Shown here: positions 16,568 through 62,449 of the stretch, piece after piece
Numbering within the stretch: the first letter of the stretch is position 1
Layout of the letters: the number at the start of each line of letters is the position of its first letter
From: Candidatus Versatilivorator sp.
GTDB lineage: Bacteria > Acidobacteriota > Terriglobia > Versatilivoradales > Versatilivoraceae
Direction: 5' to 3'
Assembly (NCBI GenBank): GCA_965207735.1
Contig: OZ242296.1
Coordinates: 704,001 to 768,000, forward strand
Length of the DNA: 64,000 nucleotides
Notes under the pieces: generated by a model
The model's database searches: none
What the model was told of the DNA's origin: nothing
Seen by the model: the letters and a program-made list of their open reading frames with translations, nothing else
Position numbers and translations under genes: made by a program

Positions 16568-16706
16568 TCCAAGGGAGTCGGTTGTTTCAGACAAGCCGGG
16601 CCCCCGCCCCCACGACGGGCGGATCATACAAGAGTGAAACAATGAGTCTTCATGGCCCGTCGGGAACAAGGGCCCTGTCGTGCCGAACCGGTTTTCTACT
16701 GATTGA

Positions 16707-16912
16707 ACATGGATGCACAGGATAAACAGGATAAACAGCACGAGAGTCTGTGCCACAGAAGCAGACCCGCTTGATGATCGGGTGGGTGTTGAAAGTGATC
16801 CAAGAGCCCGGGAGCGGGTTTTGGGAAATCCGTGTTGGAACAGAGGCGATGGTTGAACTCAAGACGGTGGAAACTCTCACCCAATAATCCTGTCCATCCT
16901 GTGCATCCATGT
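16707..16912 (+). repeat. miniature inverted-repeat element (nonamer ATGCACAGG arms) enclosing a GxxExxY gene relic; longest copy
   Basis: ACATGGATGCACAGGAT ... ATCCTGTGCATCCATGT; internal frame 16756-16887 reads QKQTRLMIGWVLKVIQEPGSGFWEI...MVELKTVETL. Confidence 0.8.
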
Positions 16913-16991
16913 AAATTAGCCGTCTGACTATGCTTGACTTTGAACGGATGTTCCGCCACCCGGCACAAGGCGTTGTTTCAAATAAACATCA

Positions 16992-17229
16992 GAGCCCTTT
17001 GCAAAATTCACGAGCGGGACCTTTGCCGGGAATGGCCACAAAAGGCACAAAAACACAAAAAGAACCATCGGATGGGCAAGTCTCGAAATCAAGAAACTCG
17101 TTTTGTGCCTTTTGTGCTTTTTGTGGTTTCTGTTGTCTCTTGTGCTTATCGTGGTGAATGCTGGAGCCTGCAGCACATCATCCTTGCCGCCTCAATGTCA
17201 TTCCCGATTGCGATATTTGCAAAAGGCTC
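16992..17229. mobile_element. 238-bp MITE-like element with GAGCCYTTTGCAAA terminal inverted repeats and an internal CACAAAAAG nonamer IR
   Basis: TIRs at both ends; near-identical inverted copy at 52447-52675. Confidence 0.8.
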
Positions 17230-17362: not shown

Positions 17363-17389
17363 CAAGGAAGCCGGCTAAAGCAGCATATT

Positions 17390-17584
17390 CTCAGGCAAGT
17401 CCGGCCCCCGCCCTGGTGTGCGGATCATACATAGAGTGAAACAATCGGAAATCGACCAACCCTTCACGACCTTGGTACCCCGTCGCGGTCAACCTCAGCG
17501 CCTTAGTGCCCCTTCGTCGTTCTTCGTGCCCCTTCGTGGATTTCTTTTTTCTTTTGTCTTTTTTCGTTTGTATCAGACAAGTCC
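17390..17584. repeat. ~195-bp dispersed repeat bounded by TCAG(G/A)CAAG direct repeats; contains an empty group II intron target
   Basis: Close direct copy at 54728-54920; partial copy from 16585; site ttcg|tgcccc at 17526/17527. Confidence 0.8.
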
Positions 17585-23745: not shown

Positions 23746-25080
23746 ATGAGAATATTGCCGTTTCGGGGTTACCGCTACAATCTAGAACGTATTCCCAACC
23801 TGGACGACGTGATCTCGCTGCCCTACGATCAGTTCAAGGGTTCCCGAGACGACCGGTTCCACCAGCGCCATCCCTTTAACATCGCGCATCTTATCATGAA
23901 CCCCGAGACCGGTAGGGATTCCCCCTCCTGGAATCGATATACCCGGTCCAAGAACTTGCTGGATCTATGGATGAAGGAATCGATCTTCCTGCAGGACGAT
24001 CAGCCCAGCATTTATCCCTATTATCAAGACTTTCCCCTTGTCGGAGGACCCGCCGTAACCCGAAAGGGATTCGTGGCTCTGGGCGAAGTGACCGATTACT
24101 CCCAGGGCATCGTACGGCCCCACGAGCGCACCATGACCAAGCCCAAGCAGGATCGCCTGGAGCTCCTGCGCTCCACTCGGGTCGACTCGGGCCTTATCTT
24201 TGTCCTCTACTCGGATCCCCGGGGGGAGATCGAGGCTATTCTGGATGAAGCGGCCGGGCCTCAGCCGGCCATGACGGCAGCCGGTCCGGACAGGATGTTG
24301 AATCGGTTGTGGCGGGTATCGGACCCAACGCCAATCGCTCGCATCCGACAGGCTATGGAGGACAAGCCCGTAATCATTGCCGACGGCCACCATCGCTACG
24401 AGGTGGCGGTGGAGTTCAGCCGGGAGGCCATGAAACGTCGCCCCGAGGACCCGGCTTGGGAAAACTATCGATTCAAGCTCTTCAGCTTCGTTCGACAGGA
24501 ATCCCCAGCCATCGCTATCTTGCCCATCCACCGCATCCTGAGGAATATGGAGGCGTTCGATGCTTCCCAATTTCTTAGGAAACTCGAGTCCTTCTTTTCC
24601 ATTGAAGCGATTGAAGTCGGTGGCGGTATTCCACCCGGAGGGCTCGAGGAGTTGCTGCAACAAATGCGGCTTCGCCAGTCCGCGGGACACGCGGCCATGG
24701 GAGTCTACCTGCCCGCACTGAACCGGTTGGCCCTGTTGACGTTTCGAAAGGAGGCGGCGGAAAGCCTGGATTGGCCGGGAGACAAGTCCGAGACCTGGCG
24801 CCAATTGGATGTTTCCATCCTTCAGGTGGCCATTTTGGGCCGGATACTGAACCTTGGGGAGCGGGAACTGGCCGAGGGTAACTTTGTGGAGTATGTCAGT
24901 GACGCCGGGGAGGCGATCCTGAAGGCGGCGGACGGATCCTGCCAATGCGCCATTCTGCTGAATCCCACACCCATGGAGCAGGTCGAGGCCGTGGTGGAGG
25001 CCGGAGACCTGCTACCCCAGAAAACCACCCACTTTCACCCCAAGCTCATGGAAGGTCTGGTGTTTGCCAAACACCTTTAG
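23746..25080 (+). CDS. DUF1015 family protein
   Basis: ILPFRGYRY, PYD, VRPHERT, IIADGHHRYE, PQKTTHFHPKL; GGAGG RBS. Confidence 0.92.
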   Translation: MRILPFRGYRYNLERIPNLDDVISLPYDQFKGSRDDRFHQRHPFNIAHLIMNPETGRDSPSWNRYTRSKNLLDLWMKESIFLQDDQPSIYPYYQDFPLVGGPAVTRKGFVALGEVTDYSQGIVRPHERTMTKPKQDRLELLRSTRVDSGLIFVLYSDPRGEIEAILDEAAGPQPAMTAAGPDRMLNRLWRVSDPTPIARIRQAMEDKPVIIADGHHRYEVAVEFSREAMKRRPEDPAWENYRFKLFSFVRQESPAIAILPIHRILRNMEAFDASQFLRKLESFFSIEAIEVGGGIPPGGLEELLQQMRLRQSAGHAAMGVYLPALNRLALLTFRKEAAESLDWPGDKSETWRQLDVSILQVAILGRILNLGERELAEGNFVEYVSDAGEAILKAADGSCQCAILLNPTPMEQVEAVVEAGDLLPQKTTHFHPKLMEGLVFAKHL

Positions 25081-25656
25081 CTCGCATTCCTCAACAAGGG
25101 GCTCCAGGAGTACAAACCCCGGTGCCAAATCCGGATCGGCCGCTCCCTCCCACGACGGTGCGGATCATTCAGAGGAGAAACAGCCAGCTGTTTGCGTTTT
25201 GGAAAGAGACAGGATTAATAGGACCAGAGGCCGCTGCACGGGACGCTGACTGGGAATCGGGGCGTTGGGCACGGCCAAGGCGCGCCACGGGGAAGATCAA
25301 TCGAGAAGGACTAAGAATTGAACATGGATGCACAGGATGCACAGGATTTACAGGACGAGAGCTTCCTGCACCAGAAGCCAACTCGGGCGAAGATCCGGTG
25401 CGGACTTGCGGATTCCCGGCATTAGAAGCCATCCGTTTCCTGAACAATCCTGTGAATCCTGTGCATCGATGTTAATGATCTCTTTAAATCACGATGGGGT
25501 CGGAAGCCCCCCCACTGGCTCCGCCGCGGTCCTTGTTGCTTCTTCGCGGACAAATCCTCTTTGTCCCTTGTGTCCTTCGTTGACCCCCCTTGCCGACCTT
25601 CATCCCATCCCTCTTGGGCCTTCTCCAGCGCCTTGGTGTCCCTTCGTCGTTCTTCG

Positions 25657-27651
25657 GTAGAGTCGAGGGGAGGCGCGCCGGCCTTAGATCGAGGGAGTCG
25701 CTGTTGCCGGCGGCTTTCGCCACTCGCCGGTGCCTCAATCTCGTTCCTCGCTGCGTTTCCTCGCCCCCGCTCGTCAAACCGGACGTGCGGTTTTCCCGCA
25801 TCCGGCTTTCAGTCAAGATCATGCCTTCGCCCTCGGAAGGCTCTGTGGCTTCGACCCCAGGCAAGTGAGTCCATAGGTTTTCCATAGTCTCTCGTCCGAG
25901 AAGCGCACACTCCCCCCGGTCCTCACCTTGTGCTTCCGACAGAGCCACTGACGCAGCCGCCCGCCCGCGTGGCGGTCGATCGCTCGGTAGGCCGGGCTCA
26001 CCTGCCCCAGAACGAAGTAGTTCGCCCACCCGGTCATCGCCCGGTTCAGGTGTTCTACCATCTGTCCTCGAAGCAGCGTCCCGTTCCTCGGCGCCGTCCA
26101 CTCGCTGATCTTGCGGCAGATGCTCTGGACGCTCGCCTGGCTGGGTCGTGTGCCGATGTAGGCTCCTTTCCCTTTGGGGCGATAGTTGCGTCCGATGCGA
26201 TATCCCAGAAACCCCATCGGTTCCTCCGGACACCGCAAGCATCGGGTCTTCCGCTCGTTGACCGGTAGCTTCAGCTCCTCCATGATCCGCTTGACCGCCG
26301 TCAGCATCTCTGCCGCCGGTGCCCTGCCGAGTACACGGAAGTCATCCGCATAGTTGACGATCTCCGCACAGAAGCGCCGGGCATATCCCAGCACCTTCCA
26401 GCCCAAAACGAAGCGCCGCATGTAGAGATTGCTGAGCAACGGTGAGATCGGGGCTCCTTGCGGTGTCCCCTTCCGCTCCCGGCGCCCTCGGTTCCGGCGG
26501 CGTCTGCCACCCTTCCCGTCGTCCTCCTCCACCGGCATCTCCAGCCATGCCTTGATGAGCTTGAGCATCCTCCCGTCACTCACGCGCCGGGCAATGCTTC
26601 GAATCAGCTCCGCATGCGGAATCTCGCCGAAGTAGTTGGACAGGTCGCCGTCAACCACCTCCTGGTAACCCCTTTGCAGGAGTTCATGCACGCGTTTGAC
26701 CGCGTCGTTGGCACTCCGCCCCCGCCGATAGCCATATTGCTCCGGTTGCAGGTCCGCTTCGAAGATCGGCTCCAACACCAGCAAAGCCGCCGTCTGCGCT
26801 ACCCGGTCCCGTATGCAGGGTATGCCCAAAGGCCGGAACTTGCCGGGCTGTTTCTTCGGGATCAGCACCTGCCGCACCGGCTTCGGTACGTAGGTTCCTT
26901 CCCTCAGGTCCCGCGCCAGTTCCCCCAGCCAGCCCTCCACCCCATACGCCTCGATGTCCTTGAAGCCCTCCCCGTCCACCCCGGCCGACCCGCCGTTTCG
27001 GCGTACCTGTGCCCAGGCTTCCTTCAGAAAGTCCTCTCGCCACACCTTGTCCGACAGCGCATGAAACCGCCGCTTGGGGTCCTCCTTCGCTTTCGCATGT
27101 AGCATGGTCTGGAATTTCCGAACCCCCTCTGACCCTGTTAGACTCTTGTCAGTGGCCACGCCTTGCCTCCTTTCCATGCTGCTCTCAACTCAGGGTCCCT
27201 TCCCTCCACCGGCGTTACCCGGCTTCTCCGGTACTACCGACCCATCCGCCACCCTGACGGCCCGGCCTGCCCCTCGCGGGGTCCCGGTTGATGTGTGCCG
27301 CATCTCCCCCAGGGCTTCCCGTGTTGCTGCCTTCTTCCCCTTCCATGCGTGCCAGCGTCACTACCCCGACGGAAGCGGATCGGTGCCCGCGTCGCTCTCT
27401 TCCCCATCCGCCAACGGCCTTCCCCTAAAGACAGGAGGGTCGGCTTCCGTATTGTCCGTTTCGAGGCCTGCTCGACGTTCACTCGCGTTCCGGCCCGCAT
27501 GCTCGCTGAGCCGCCCTTGGCGGCCCTTGACCCCAGAGTGCTTCAGACCATTTCGTTACCTCCATGATCCGCCCTGGCTGCTACCAACCGGAGCGACAGT
27601 TGTTGGGCGGGGTTCGCACCCGCCAGAAGAAGGCGCCTTTCCACGGCGCAC
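25657..27651 (-). mobile_element. complete group II intron (ribozyme plus IEP)
   Basis: 5' GTGCGCCGTGG at 27651; domain V AAGCCGGATGCGGGAAAACCGCACGTCCGGTTT (AGC triad, ~25776-25808); 3' ...CTCTAC at 25657. The flanks rejoin to the intact repeat ccacgaaggggca|cgaagaacgacg. Confidence 0.93.
25819..27177 (-). CDS. ltrA: group II intron reverse transcriptase/maturase, no endonuclease domain
   Basis: RT0 NGGSAGVDG, RPLGIPCIRDRVAQ, QYGYR, DLSNYF, GTPQGAPISPLLSNLY, YADD, FLGY, domain X GWANYF; ends without an HNH domain. Confidence 0.95.
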   Translation of the reverse strand: MERRQGVATDKSLTGSEGVRKFQTMLHAKAKEDPKRRFHALSDKVWREDFLKEAWAQVRRNGGSAGVDGEGFKDIEAYGVEGWLGELARDLREGTYVPKPVRQVLIPKKQPGKFRPLGIPCIRDRVAQTAALLVLEPIFEADLQPEQYGYRRGRSANDAVKRVHELLQRGYQEVVDGDLSNYFGEIPHAELIRSIARRVSDGRMLKLIKAWLEMPVEEDDGKGGRRRRNRGRRERKGTPQGAPISPLLSNLYMRRFVLGWKVLGYARRFCAEIVNYADDFRVLGRAPAAEMLTAVKRIMEELKLPVNERKTRCLRCPEEPMGFLGYRIGRNYRPKGKGAYIGTRPSQASVQSICRKISEWTAPRNGTLLRGQMVEHLNRAMTGWANYFVLGQVSPAYRAIDRHAGGRLRQWLCRKHKVRTGGSVRFSDERLWKTYGLTCLGSKPQSLPRAKA

Positions 27652-27705
27652 TGCCCCTTCGTGGATAAGTCTTTTTCTCTTGTCTCTTGTCGTTTTTCGG
27701 TTATT

Positions 27706-47228: not shown

Positions 47229-47502
47229 CGGAAAGAACTCCCGAGGAGAGCATGGATCGGACCGGCAGTCAGTATACCCCATGTCCCGCTTGCCTGAACC
47301 CATCGAGCGGTTGTCCACAAAAGCGACCTCCACGACGAGGCGGAAGAACCGCGAATGAACACGAATTGACACCAATAATCGCATCGATGATCTGTCTTCG
47401 TGTCCAATGGTGGTTCACATCCATCATCACTAACGAACGCCGCCTTACCTCGAATGATCCGCATGCCGGATCCCGCCGGGGATCGAAATTTTTTTCTTAG
47501 TT

Positions 47503-47856
47503 AACATGGATGAAAAGGATGAACAGGATGAACAAGACGTAAGATTTCTGCACCGGAAGCCGGCTCGGGGGATGATGCGGTGCGGGCCTGCGGATGCTCA
47601 GGATCGCAGGCTGCCGGACTCCTGAAACAAAATCCTGTGTATCCATGAGCCTTTTGCAACATTCCGCAGCCAACGGTTTTATGGAGGCTCGGAACAGGTT
47701 TTGATTCACATGGATGCACAGGATGCACAGGATTTTTTCAGGAAACGGCTAGCGGGTAATCCTGGCATCCGCAAATCCGCACACGATCATTGCCGGAGCC
47801 GGCTTCTCGTGCAGCAGCGTCCCGTACTGGTTATCCTGTGCATGGATGTGAATTAT
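47503..47856. repeat. two adjacent nonamer-IR GxxExxY-relic elements separated by a GAGCCTTTTGCAA end
   Basis: 47503-47646 reads MDEKDEQDEQDVRFLHRKPARGMMRCG; 47645-47856 is nearly identical to 52234-52446. Confidence 0.8.
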
Positions 47857-48044
47857 CCCTGTAACTCTGGGGTGAGATCGCCGCCGCATCCCGCCCTTGC
47901 AAAGGGGAGAAATATGGGTTAAAATCTTCCCAAGCCCTGATACCGTTGACCTGCGCCCTCAAAGGCCGCCATAACGGTTCTCATCGACAACGCCTGTCGC
48001 ATGACCACATGGACTGAGTGCGGTCGTCCCAAAGGAGGGGTAAC

Positions 48045-52233: not shown

Positions 52234-52446
52234 ATGAGCCTTTTGCAAAATTCCGCAGCCAACCGTTTTATGGAGGCTCGGAACAGGTTTTGATTCACAT
52301 GGATGCACAGGATGCACAGGATTTTTTCAGGAAACGGCTAGCTGGTAATCCTGAGCATCCGCAAATCCGCACACGATCATTGCCGGAGCCGGCTTCTCGT
52401 GCAGCAGCGTCCCGTCCTGGTTATCCTGTGCATCCATGTTAATTAT
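52234..52446. repeat. direct repeat of 47645-47856 (nonamer-IR relic)
   Basis: Minus strand reads MDAQDNQDGTLLHEKPAPAMIVCGFA. Confidence 0.85.
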
Positions 52447-61955: not shown

Positions 61956-62449
61956 CTTGCCTGAAACAAACGACAAGAGACAAAAGAAAAAGAGTGATCC
62001 ACGAAGGGCCACGAAGGACGACGAAGGGACACCAAGGCGCTGGAGAAGGCCCAAGAGGGATGGGGCGAAGGTCGGCAAGAGGGTCAACGAAGGACACAAG
62101 GGACAAAGAGGATTTGTCCGCGAAGAAGCAACAAGGACCGCGGCGGAGCCAGTGGGGGGCTTCCGACCCCATCGTGATTTAAGGAGATCATTAACATCGA
62201 TGCACAGGATTCACAGGATTCTTCAGGAAACGGCTGGCTTCTACTGCCGGGAATCCGCAAATCCGCACCGGATCATCGCCCGAGTTGGCTTCTGGTGCAG
62301 GAAGCTCTCGTCCTGTCAATCCTGTGCATCCATGTTCAACTTATAGTCCTTCTCGATTGATCTTCCCCGTGGCGGGCCTTGGCTGTGCCCAACGCCCCGA
62401 TTCCCAGTCAGCGTCCCGTGCAGCGGCCTCTGGTCCTATTTGTCCTGTC
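61956..62449. repeat. uninterrupted inverted copy of the ~500-bp composite repeat that hosts the intron
   Basis: Reverse complement of 25208-25656 plus 27652-27714; includes nonamer-IR relic 62193-62336. Confidence 0.88.

Follow-up and report, generated by a model that had tools for sequence, protein, structure and literature searches.

IS-derived MITEs are short, internally deleted derivatives of an autonomous parent that carry inverted ends. Free-standing homing endonuclease genes, including those of the PD-(D/E)XK types, encode a lone nuclease under purifying selection, generate no TSD and spread through allele replacement at a fixed site. In the REPIN/RAYT and TIRtron/TIRYT systems, as set out in the accessible parts of the respective reports, the enzyme gene lies between its own inverted repeats and gene-less doublets are scattered intergenically (PMC3116915; PMC3733652); the same parts of the former report describe tandem REPIN clusters that include flanking DNA (PMC3116915). 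According to the available sections of a further study, IS110 elements of the ISPpu9 type insert at palindromic repeats and move non-coding modules bearing their ends (PMC12288879). The family PDDEXK_3 (PF13366), to which the nuclease discussed below belongs, appears in the accessible portion of another source as a family of unknown function with multiple horizontal transfers (PMC3424549).

The window under study, a 64-kb stretch of the complete 5.26-Mb genome of Candidatus Versatilivorator sp. (hereafter G000), holds six short repeats that, to judge from DNA alignments, are internal-deletion remnants (relics) of a small nuclease gene enclosed by inverted nonamer arms. Their 17-nt left motif starts at 16707, 25322, 47504, 47708, 52297 and 62194; all six arm-bounded elements listed in an earlier, sequence-only reading of the window were recovered, three of its starts (25321, 47503 and 62193) being off by one, and the peptides that it quoted are found within the window sequence. 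The six relics are the following.

16707 to 16912, plus strand: 206-bp relic, consisting of the left arm, a 5′ gene piece up to GSGF (to 16833), a VELK piece (16833-16878) and the right arm.
25322 to 25472, plus strand: 151-bp relic, with arms and the first ~27 codons joined to the 3′ tail of the gene.
47504 to 47648, plus strand: 145-bp relic, the right arm of which is shortened by an IS1182/IS5-like terminal repeat starting at 47647.
47708 to 47849, minus strand: 142-bp relic, placed by the motif and by alignment to the intact cassette.
52297 to 52439, minus strand: 143-bp relic, between IS1182/IS5-like terminal repeats at 52236 and 52447.
62194 to 62335, minus strand: 142-bp relic, with the same composite flanks as the copy at 25322.

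Across G000, the arm motifs occur 115 times (left) and 116 times (right) at no more than two mismatches, compared to zero occurrences in a Markov-3 control genome, and they form 87 pairs within 3 kb, 86 of which span less than 300 bp. The short pairs fall into size classes of ~143/151, 206 and 234 bp, and both arms are kept in every class. The 206-bp element is present in all 13 congeners and in none of the 17 other genomes searched. The sequence shared by the relic copies extends 100 bp or more outside the arms, a point missed by the sequence-only reading that becomes important below.

With respect to the origin of the relics, nucleotides 5-127 of the element at 16707 align with nucleotides 14-136 of an intact congener cassette (78% identity, E 1e-23 against a six-sequence database), and nucleotides 127-172 align with cassette nucleotides 254-299 (78%), after which the right arm follows. 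The catalytic Asp and QxxxY segments are thereby deleted, and the relic folds as a hairpin (z -4.92). Members of the 234-bp class retain a longer middle piece of the gene, and in the short class the first ~80 nt are joined to the 3′ tail; no match to the central part of the gene, where the catalytic Asp is encoded, was found anywhere in G000. An intact gene with the same ACATGGAT/ACAGGAT arms was identified in six congeners, and full-length GxxExxY genes in 12 of the 13; the intact parent protein scores 143 bits against TIGR04256 (cut-off 35) and 140-144 bits against PF13366. The terminal inverted repeats of the relics are thus shared with a candidate autonomous parent, namely the intact congener cassettes. 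One junction is occupied in G005 and G013 by the intact gene with a relic on either side in tandem, and in G000 by two relics only.

Given that the same arms surround intact congener genes and that the deletion joints map onto these genes, the origin of the relics as deletion remnants is shown at the DNA level, and the graded deletion series in G000 can be taken to tie them to their parent nucleotide by nucleotide. The sequence-only reading, in which the elements were internally deleted GxxExxY genes with the GxxE segment joined to the VELK segment, is therefore borne out by alignment to intact congener cassettes. The profile match that it had anticipated did not materialize: the window relics are absent from the PF13366 and TIGR04256 matches in G000 at E <= 0.1, being too short and decayed for the profiles. 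Its expectation of intact genes bounded by the same inverted repeats holds in the six congeners and fails in G000, where a PF13366/TIGR04256 profile search of the genome returned partial matches only and no intact gene. Debris of three more cassette types, with CACAAAA, CACGAAG and CACGAAT arms, is also present in G000.

The intact cassette is 410-500 bp long and consists of a gene for a GxxExxY nuclease of the PD-(D/E)XK class flanked by inverted nonamer arms, with no second gene between them; the parent protein matches only PF13366/TIGR04256, and a known transposase is absent. The loci retrieved contain 165 full-length genes, and a test for arms used the 144 of these that are distinct and have flanks: matched inverted arms (score >= 24) accompany 99 of the 144, with control values of 2 of 556 for shifted windows and 9 of 144 for swapped partners, and the remaining 45 genes score below the threshold. 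Arm type switches 11 times on a tree of 93 proteins, as against at least 52 times in 300 shuffles, the tree comprising the genes with an assignable type (51 of the 144 lacked one and were left out); simple linkage could also produce such congruence between arm and protein, and related genomes do not count as independent. Furthermore, G21, E24, D63 and K75 are invariant and E73, Q87 and Y91 at least 90% conserved among 104 proteins, and dN/dS ranges from 0.06 to 0.28 in 15 pairs among the six parents.

The predicted structure (pLDDT 94) adopts the PD-(D/E)XK fold and displays the catalytic D...ExK together with QxxxY. A search with the model retrieved Cas4 SSO0001, Uma2-like proteins, Hjc and lambda exonuclease (Z 7-8.7 or E about 1e-3); no single fold match stands out, and the matches give no substrate. 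A solved structure matching by sequence was not found. Some intact genes (L024, L169, L173, L181, L157, L205 and L236) are accompanied by outward-facing arms, with the right-arm sense upstream and the left-arm sense downstream, a configuration that a simple terminal-repeat model leaves unexplained.

The explanation that we consider probable has two layers: the relics are remnants of a cassette that is likely selfish DNA spread by its nuclease, and the recent copies are most likely cargo of IS miniatures and products of repeat recombination. In the first layer, nicks or cuts would be made by the nuclease at its own arms, in hairpin or cruciform form, or at arm-like targets. Host repair would then copy the DNA bounded by the arms, without producing a TSD, either into AT-rich junctions where host stop codons lie or on top of arms already present; tandem arrays that include some flank, internal deletions and gene-less arm pairs would be side products. 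In the second layer, part of which is shown, the relics would derive from a cassette that is kept at one gene junction in congeners; they would have been caught between IS ends and then multiplied as larger blocks, the ACAGGAT relics being presumably amplified by IS transposases. We infer from these patterns that the nuclease itself may mobilize the cassette. Extended to the family at large, the proposal becomes more tentative, and we put it forward as a serious possibility short of an expectation: GxxExxY cassettes may be a widespread, undescribed form of minimal selfish DNA. A lone nuclease with a restriction-enzyme fold, without a transposase or integrase, would cut its own nonamer arms, host repair would insert the cassette, or derivatives of it that lack the gene, at junctions next to stop codons and on top of rival arms, and each protein clade would recognize its own nonamer.

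Several observations on intact cassettes bear on the first layer. At one junction in the genus g56, 20 genomes picked for variety from the genus's 41 comprise 8 empty, 5 full-length, 6 gene-less and 1 internally deleted allele, with the caveat that the 'empty' allele holds an arm-like word and may be a decayed relic. The full-length alleles represent two different genes with different arms, and entire intergenic regions, ribosome-binding sites included, are replaced between alleles. The genes at this junction we take, from their peptides, to be thiolase-like and hydroxyacyl-CoA dehydrogenase-like. Of 20 sites fetched from a second genus, 11 were anchored and 9 could not be; the anchored sites comprise 2 empty, 1 full-length, 3 gene-less and 1 internally deleted sites along with 4 unrelated inserts. 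Moreover, 24 of 55 cassettes have their left arm within -20 to +12 nt of a host stop in the same orientation, compared to 113 of 2200 random positions; the head of the arm often abuts or supplies the host stop codon, and the right arm abuts a convergent stop in 13 of the 55.

Around the same 55 cassettes, no TSD signal rose above swapped-flank controls for k = 3-8; a palindromic TSD would be masked within the arm and may have escaped this test. Tandem arrays of intact cassettes have a repeat unit that includes ~30 nt of downstream flank. Of 50 genomes that have a full-length gene, 27 contain at least five arms of the CRCAGAG type, as do 5 of 100 genomes that lack one; this is a hand tally evaluated by Fisher's test, in which kin are not independent and the 100 include the unpublished G052. 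The comparison of filled and empty sites called for by the sequence-only reading thus gives a divided answer: intact cassettes and gene-less pairs are variably present at orthologous sites, and a TSD is not detectable. Taken together, the intact cassettes appear to be mobile. Within the genus of G000, the 34 congener intact-gene loci that were mapped to this genome, 12 of which were inspected, proved too diverged or composite for exact junctions. At locus L105 (G011), the right arm appears to provide the downstream host gene with an in-frame start, and the 5′ part of that gene is duplicated inside the insert.

At three loci in G009 and G011 (L100, L101 and L109), an intact CACGAAT-type cassette sits in a ~600-bp block with CTAG at both ends, which suggests carriage by another IS-like miniature. 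Since intact cassettes also ride other elements, part of their apparent mobility may be passive.

The second layer rests on the surroundings of the relics in G000. The boundary that recurs around relic blocks is the junction between the right end and the left end of an IS110 element, 10 intact copies of which are present in the genome. The window features concerned are these.

16582 to 16642, plus strand: IS110 right-end/left-end junction module, directly upstream of the conserved flank of the 206-bp relic and matching the ends of the 10 intact copies.
16973 to 16980, plus strand: IS110 right-end-like octamer that closes the block carrying the 206-bp relic.
16992 to 17229, plus strand: IS1182/IS5-like miniature of 238 bp, carrying arms of the second GxxExxY cassette type (CACAAAA, about 17034-17125).
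17389 to 17581, plus strand: IS110 end junction and common IS110 miniature of ~161 bp, the miniature bearing an arm of the third cassette type (CACGAAG).
25657 to 27651, minus strand: group II intron with an RT ORF at 25819-27177, located in a CACGAAG-type arm beside the relic at 25322; context, not part of the relic.

Among 114 end-to-end modules of IS110 in the genome, 10 contain the transposase, 78 a CACGAAG arm without an ACAGGAT arm, and 13 an ACAGGAT arm; the 78 show no other cargo tags beyond a CACGAAT-like word. The IS1182/IS5-like parent is 1487 bp long and present in 43 copies, 36 with a 4-bp TSD; its family score lies below the curated cut-offs, with IS1182 as the best match. Of its 37 miniatures, 13 have a 4-bp TSD, and 26 contain CACAAAA arms (10 of these with a TSD), some including the 3′ end of the gene as well. 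None of the 37 pairs of IS1182/IS5-like miniature ends encloses an ACAGGAT relic. IS110 or IS5-like ends are found within 450 bp of 60 of the 83 relics examined, and both IS110 ends within that distance of 12 of 27 long and 8 of 56 short relics. Relics and arms are thus carried, in part, inside IS110 and IS1182/IS5-like miniatures; given that 20 of the 83 relics have both IS110 ends and 23 have neither IS end, IS carriage does not explain every copy. The 'partner' that the sequence-only reading had allowed for is, in G000, most likely the transposases of ordinary IS110 and IS1182/IS5-like elements, acting on the ends of those elements.

Some further repeats share this environment. All 10 IS110 copies (e.g., C1:3045749; PF02371) are preceded by a right-end-like sequence, in most cases with a CACGAAG arm before it, so that the element seems to target its own miniatures and to build tandem arrays. 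The group II intron occupies a fixed position in the CACGAAG-type arm; about 12 of 46 intron 5′ ends in G000 lie in this arm, and most of the others follow a second recurring motif. A repeated, decayed integrase-like segment of ~1.8 kb (C1:3237600-3239370 and copies) adjoins several relics. Locus L293 (C1:2226500-2228200) contains the single RAYT-like gene of G000, which scores 78 bits (cut-off 80); the REP-like repeat on its flanks is GC-rich and occurs 82 times in the genome.

These observations also frame an alternative that we regard as unlikely, namely that the nuclease is a passenger, its arms being REP/REPIN-like hairpins that owe their movement to a different enzyme (RAYT-like or an IS transposase) or to the horizontal exchange of alleles. 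The gene itself would then be kept on other grounds, e.g., addiction or a host function. A RAYT-like protein is indeed encoded in G000, but the repeat that flanks its gene differs from the arms. Arms and relics are demonstrably cargo of IS miniatures, an intact gene lies inside the CTAG-bounded block at three loci, and the g56 junction swaps whole intergenic regions together with ribosome-binding sites; nevertheless, every gene has its own matched arms (at the rate given above for the arm test), arm type follows the protein phylogeny across phyla, abundant arms tend to be found where the gene is present, and there is no second gene between the arms.

The history of the individual copies in G000 can be read from their flanks. 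Both flanks are shared with other copies by 57 of the 83 relics, with a median nearest-copy identity of 0.95, indicative of a young age; one flank is shared by 18 (0.86) and neither by 8 (0.79). Conserved flank modules nearly always come with an arm (25/25, 24/25, 9/9 and 16/16), and empty versions of these modules in G000 amount to just a few deletion-like joints. In the closest relative, G002 (about 95% identical), 20 sites were mapped and 10 junctions inspected: two differences from G000 are blocks bounded by a repeated IS110 left end, four break inside the relic or its arms, four replace blocks of 0.7-1.1 kb, and none breaks at both arm tips. The blocks bounded by direct repeats could equally be explained as losses by recombination. 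Six 'bare' sites were searched for in five congeners, and of the four inspected, one is a loss and the others are replaced mosaics; at the former, an old copy is missing in G002 save for an arm stub, and its presence in G005, a more distant congener, marks the difference as a loss. The best-matching copies from G005 and G009 share 97% identity with the window element, compared to 82-88% for neighboring genes, which suggests exchange between species.

Small two-gene inserts, presumably toxin-antitoxin pairs of the PIN type by their resemblance, occupy the sites in G009 and G008 that are orthologous to window positions 25080-27700 and the site in G005 orthologous to positions 47285-47880, so that these junctions look like general insertion hot spots.

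A further alternative, which we consider quite improbable, is that the relics are MITEs with the nonamer arms as transposon ends, moved arm-to-arm in trans by the GxxExxY protein. The retention of both arms in all size classes, the eight old copies with unique flanks on both sides, and the gene-less arm pairs at the same junctions as intact cassettes in other genera are all as such a process would have it. The site where G002 has no more than a short arm stub in place of the element could be added to this list, but it represents a loss, as the copy in G005 indicates. Moreover, G000 has no intact gene, conserved flanks almost never occur without an arm, breaks at both arm tips are not seen in any of the 10 differences from G002 that were inspected, and a TSD signal is absent. 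The claim of the sequence-only reading that the relics spread as MITE-like units delimited by the nonamer arms is accordingly not supported: flanks are shared, none of the inspected differences breaks at both tips, and neither an intact gene in G000 nor a TSD was found. Finally, that the relics are host regulatory hairpins, i.e., mRNA stabilizers or terminators whose number reflects selection rather than mobility, is hardly credible despite the strong predicted hairpin and intergenic location, given that the orthologous sites of close relatives are occupied by other repeats or by none and that the copies sit in stacks of IS debris.

Under the two-layer explanation, the copies in the window are most likely dead relics amplified by known elements. 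No description of a GxxExxY arm cassette was found in the open-access papers searched; the cassette is likely undescribed, the chemistry of its nuclease being putative. The large PF13366/TIGR04256 family thereby gains a concrete, testable role and a candidate substrate, the arm sequence belonging to each enzyme. If the nuclease drives the spread, the cassette would qualify as a mobile element that relies on no known transposase chemistry, and it would probably give rise to abundant hairpin repeats between genes across many phyla. As a note of caution, a high copy number of relics can arise from riding ordinary IS ends and is, by itself, no proof of nuclease action.

Set against the known systems, the relics resemble IS-derived MITEs in being short, internally deleted and bounded by inverted ends that are shared with a parent; they differ from classical MITEs in that the parent has no DDE transposase, a TSD was undetected and the ends of young copies do not coincide with their own inverted repeats. 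With homing endonuclease genes, the cassette shares a lone nuclease, purifying selection, the lack of a TSD and patterns of allele replacement, whereas its own inverted arms, its many unrelated sites and its gene-less derivatives set it apart. The IS110 miniatures described here appear to follow modular transposition of the ISPpu9 type, for which the accessible sections of that study offer a precedent in end-bearing modules (PMC12288879); in contrast to ISPpu9, the cargo here is debris of another selfish cassette. Compared with the account of PF13366 in the portion of PMC3424549 available, the present analysis adds the arms, the cassette and the derivatives, which go unmentioned there. The closest parallel, judged by the accessible parts of the corresponding reports, is with REPIN/RAYT systems and TIRtrons, which likewise combine a lone enzyme gene with its own inverted repeats, gene-less intergenic doublets and tandem clusters that include flank. 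However, the cassette encodes, in place of an HUH tyrosine (Y1) transposase, a PD-(D/E)XK nuclease of about 120-150 aa, the arms are nonamer arrays, the gene is found at many sites and many derivatives keep gene remnants. By analogy, therefore, the cassette would be most like REPIN/RAYT or TIRtrons in its working, but by its enzyme it is not a member of either.
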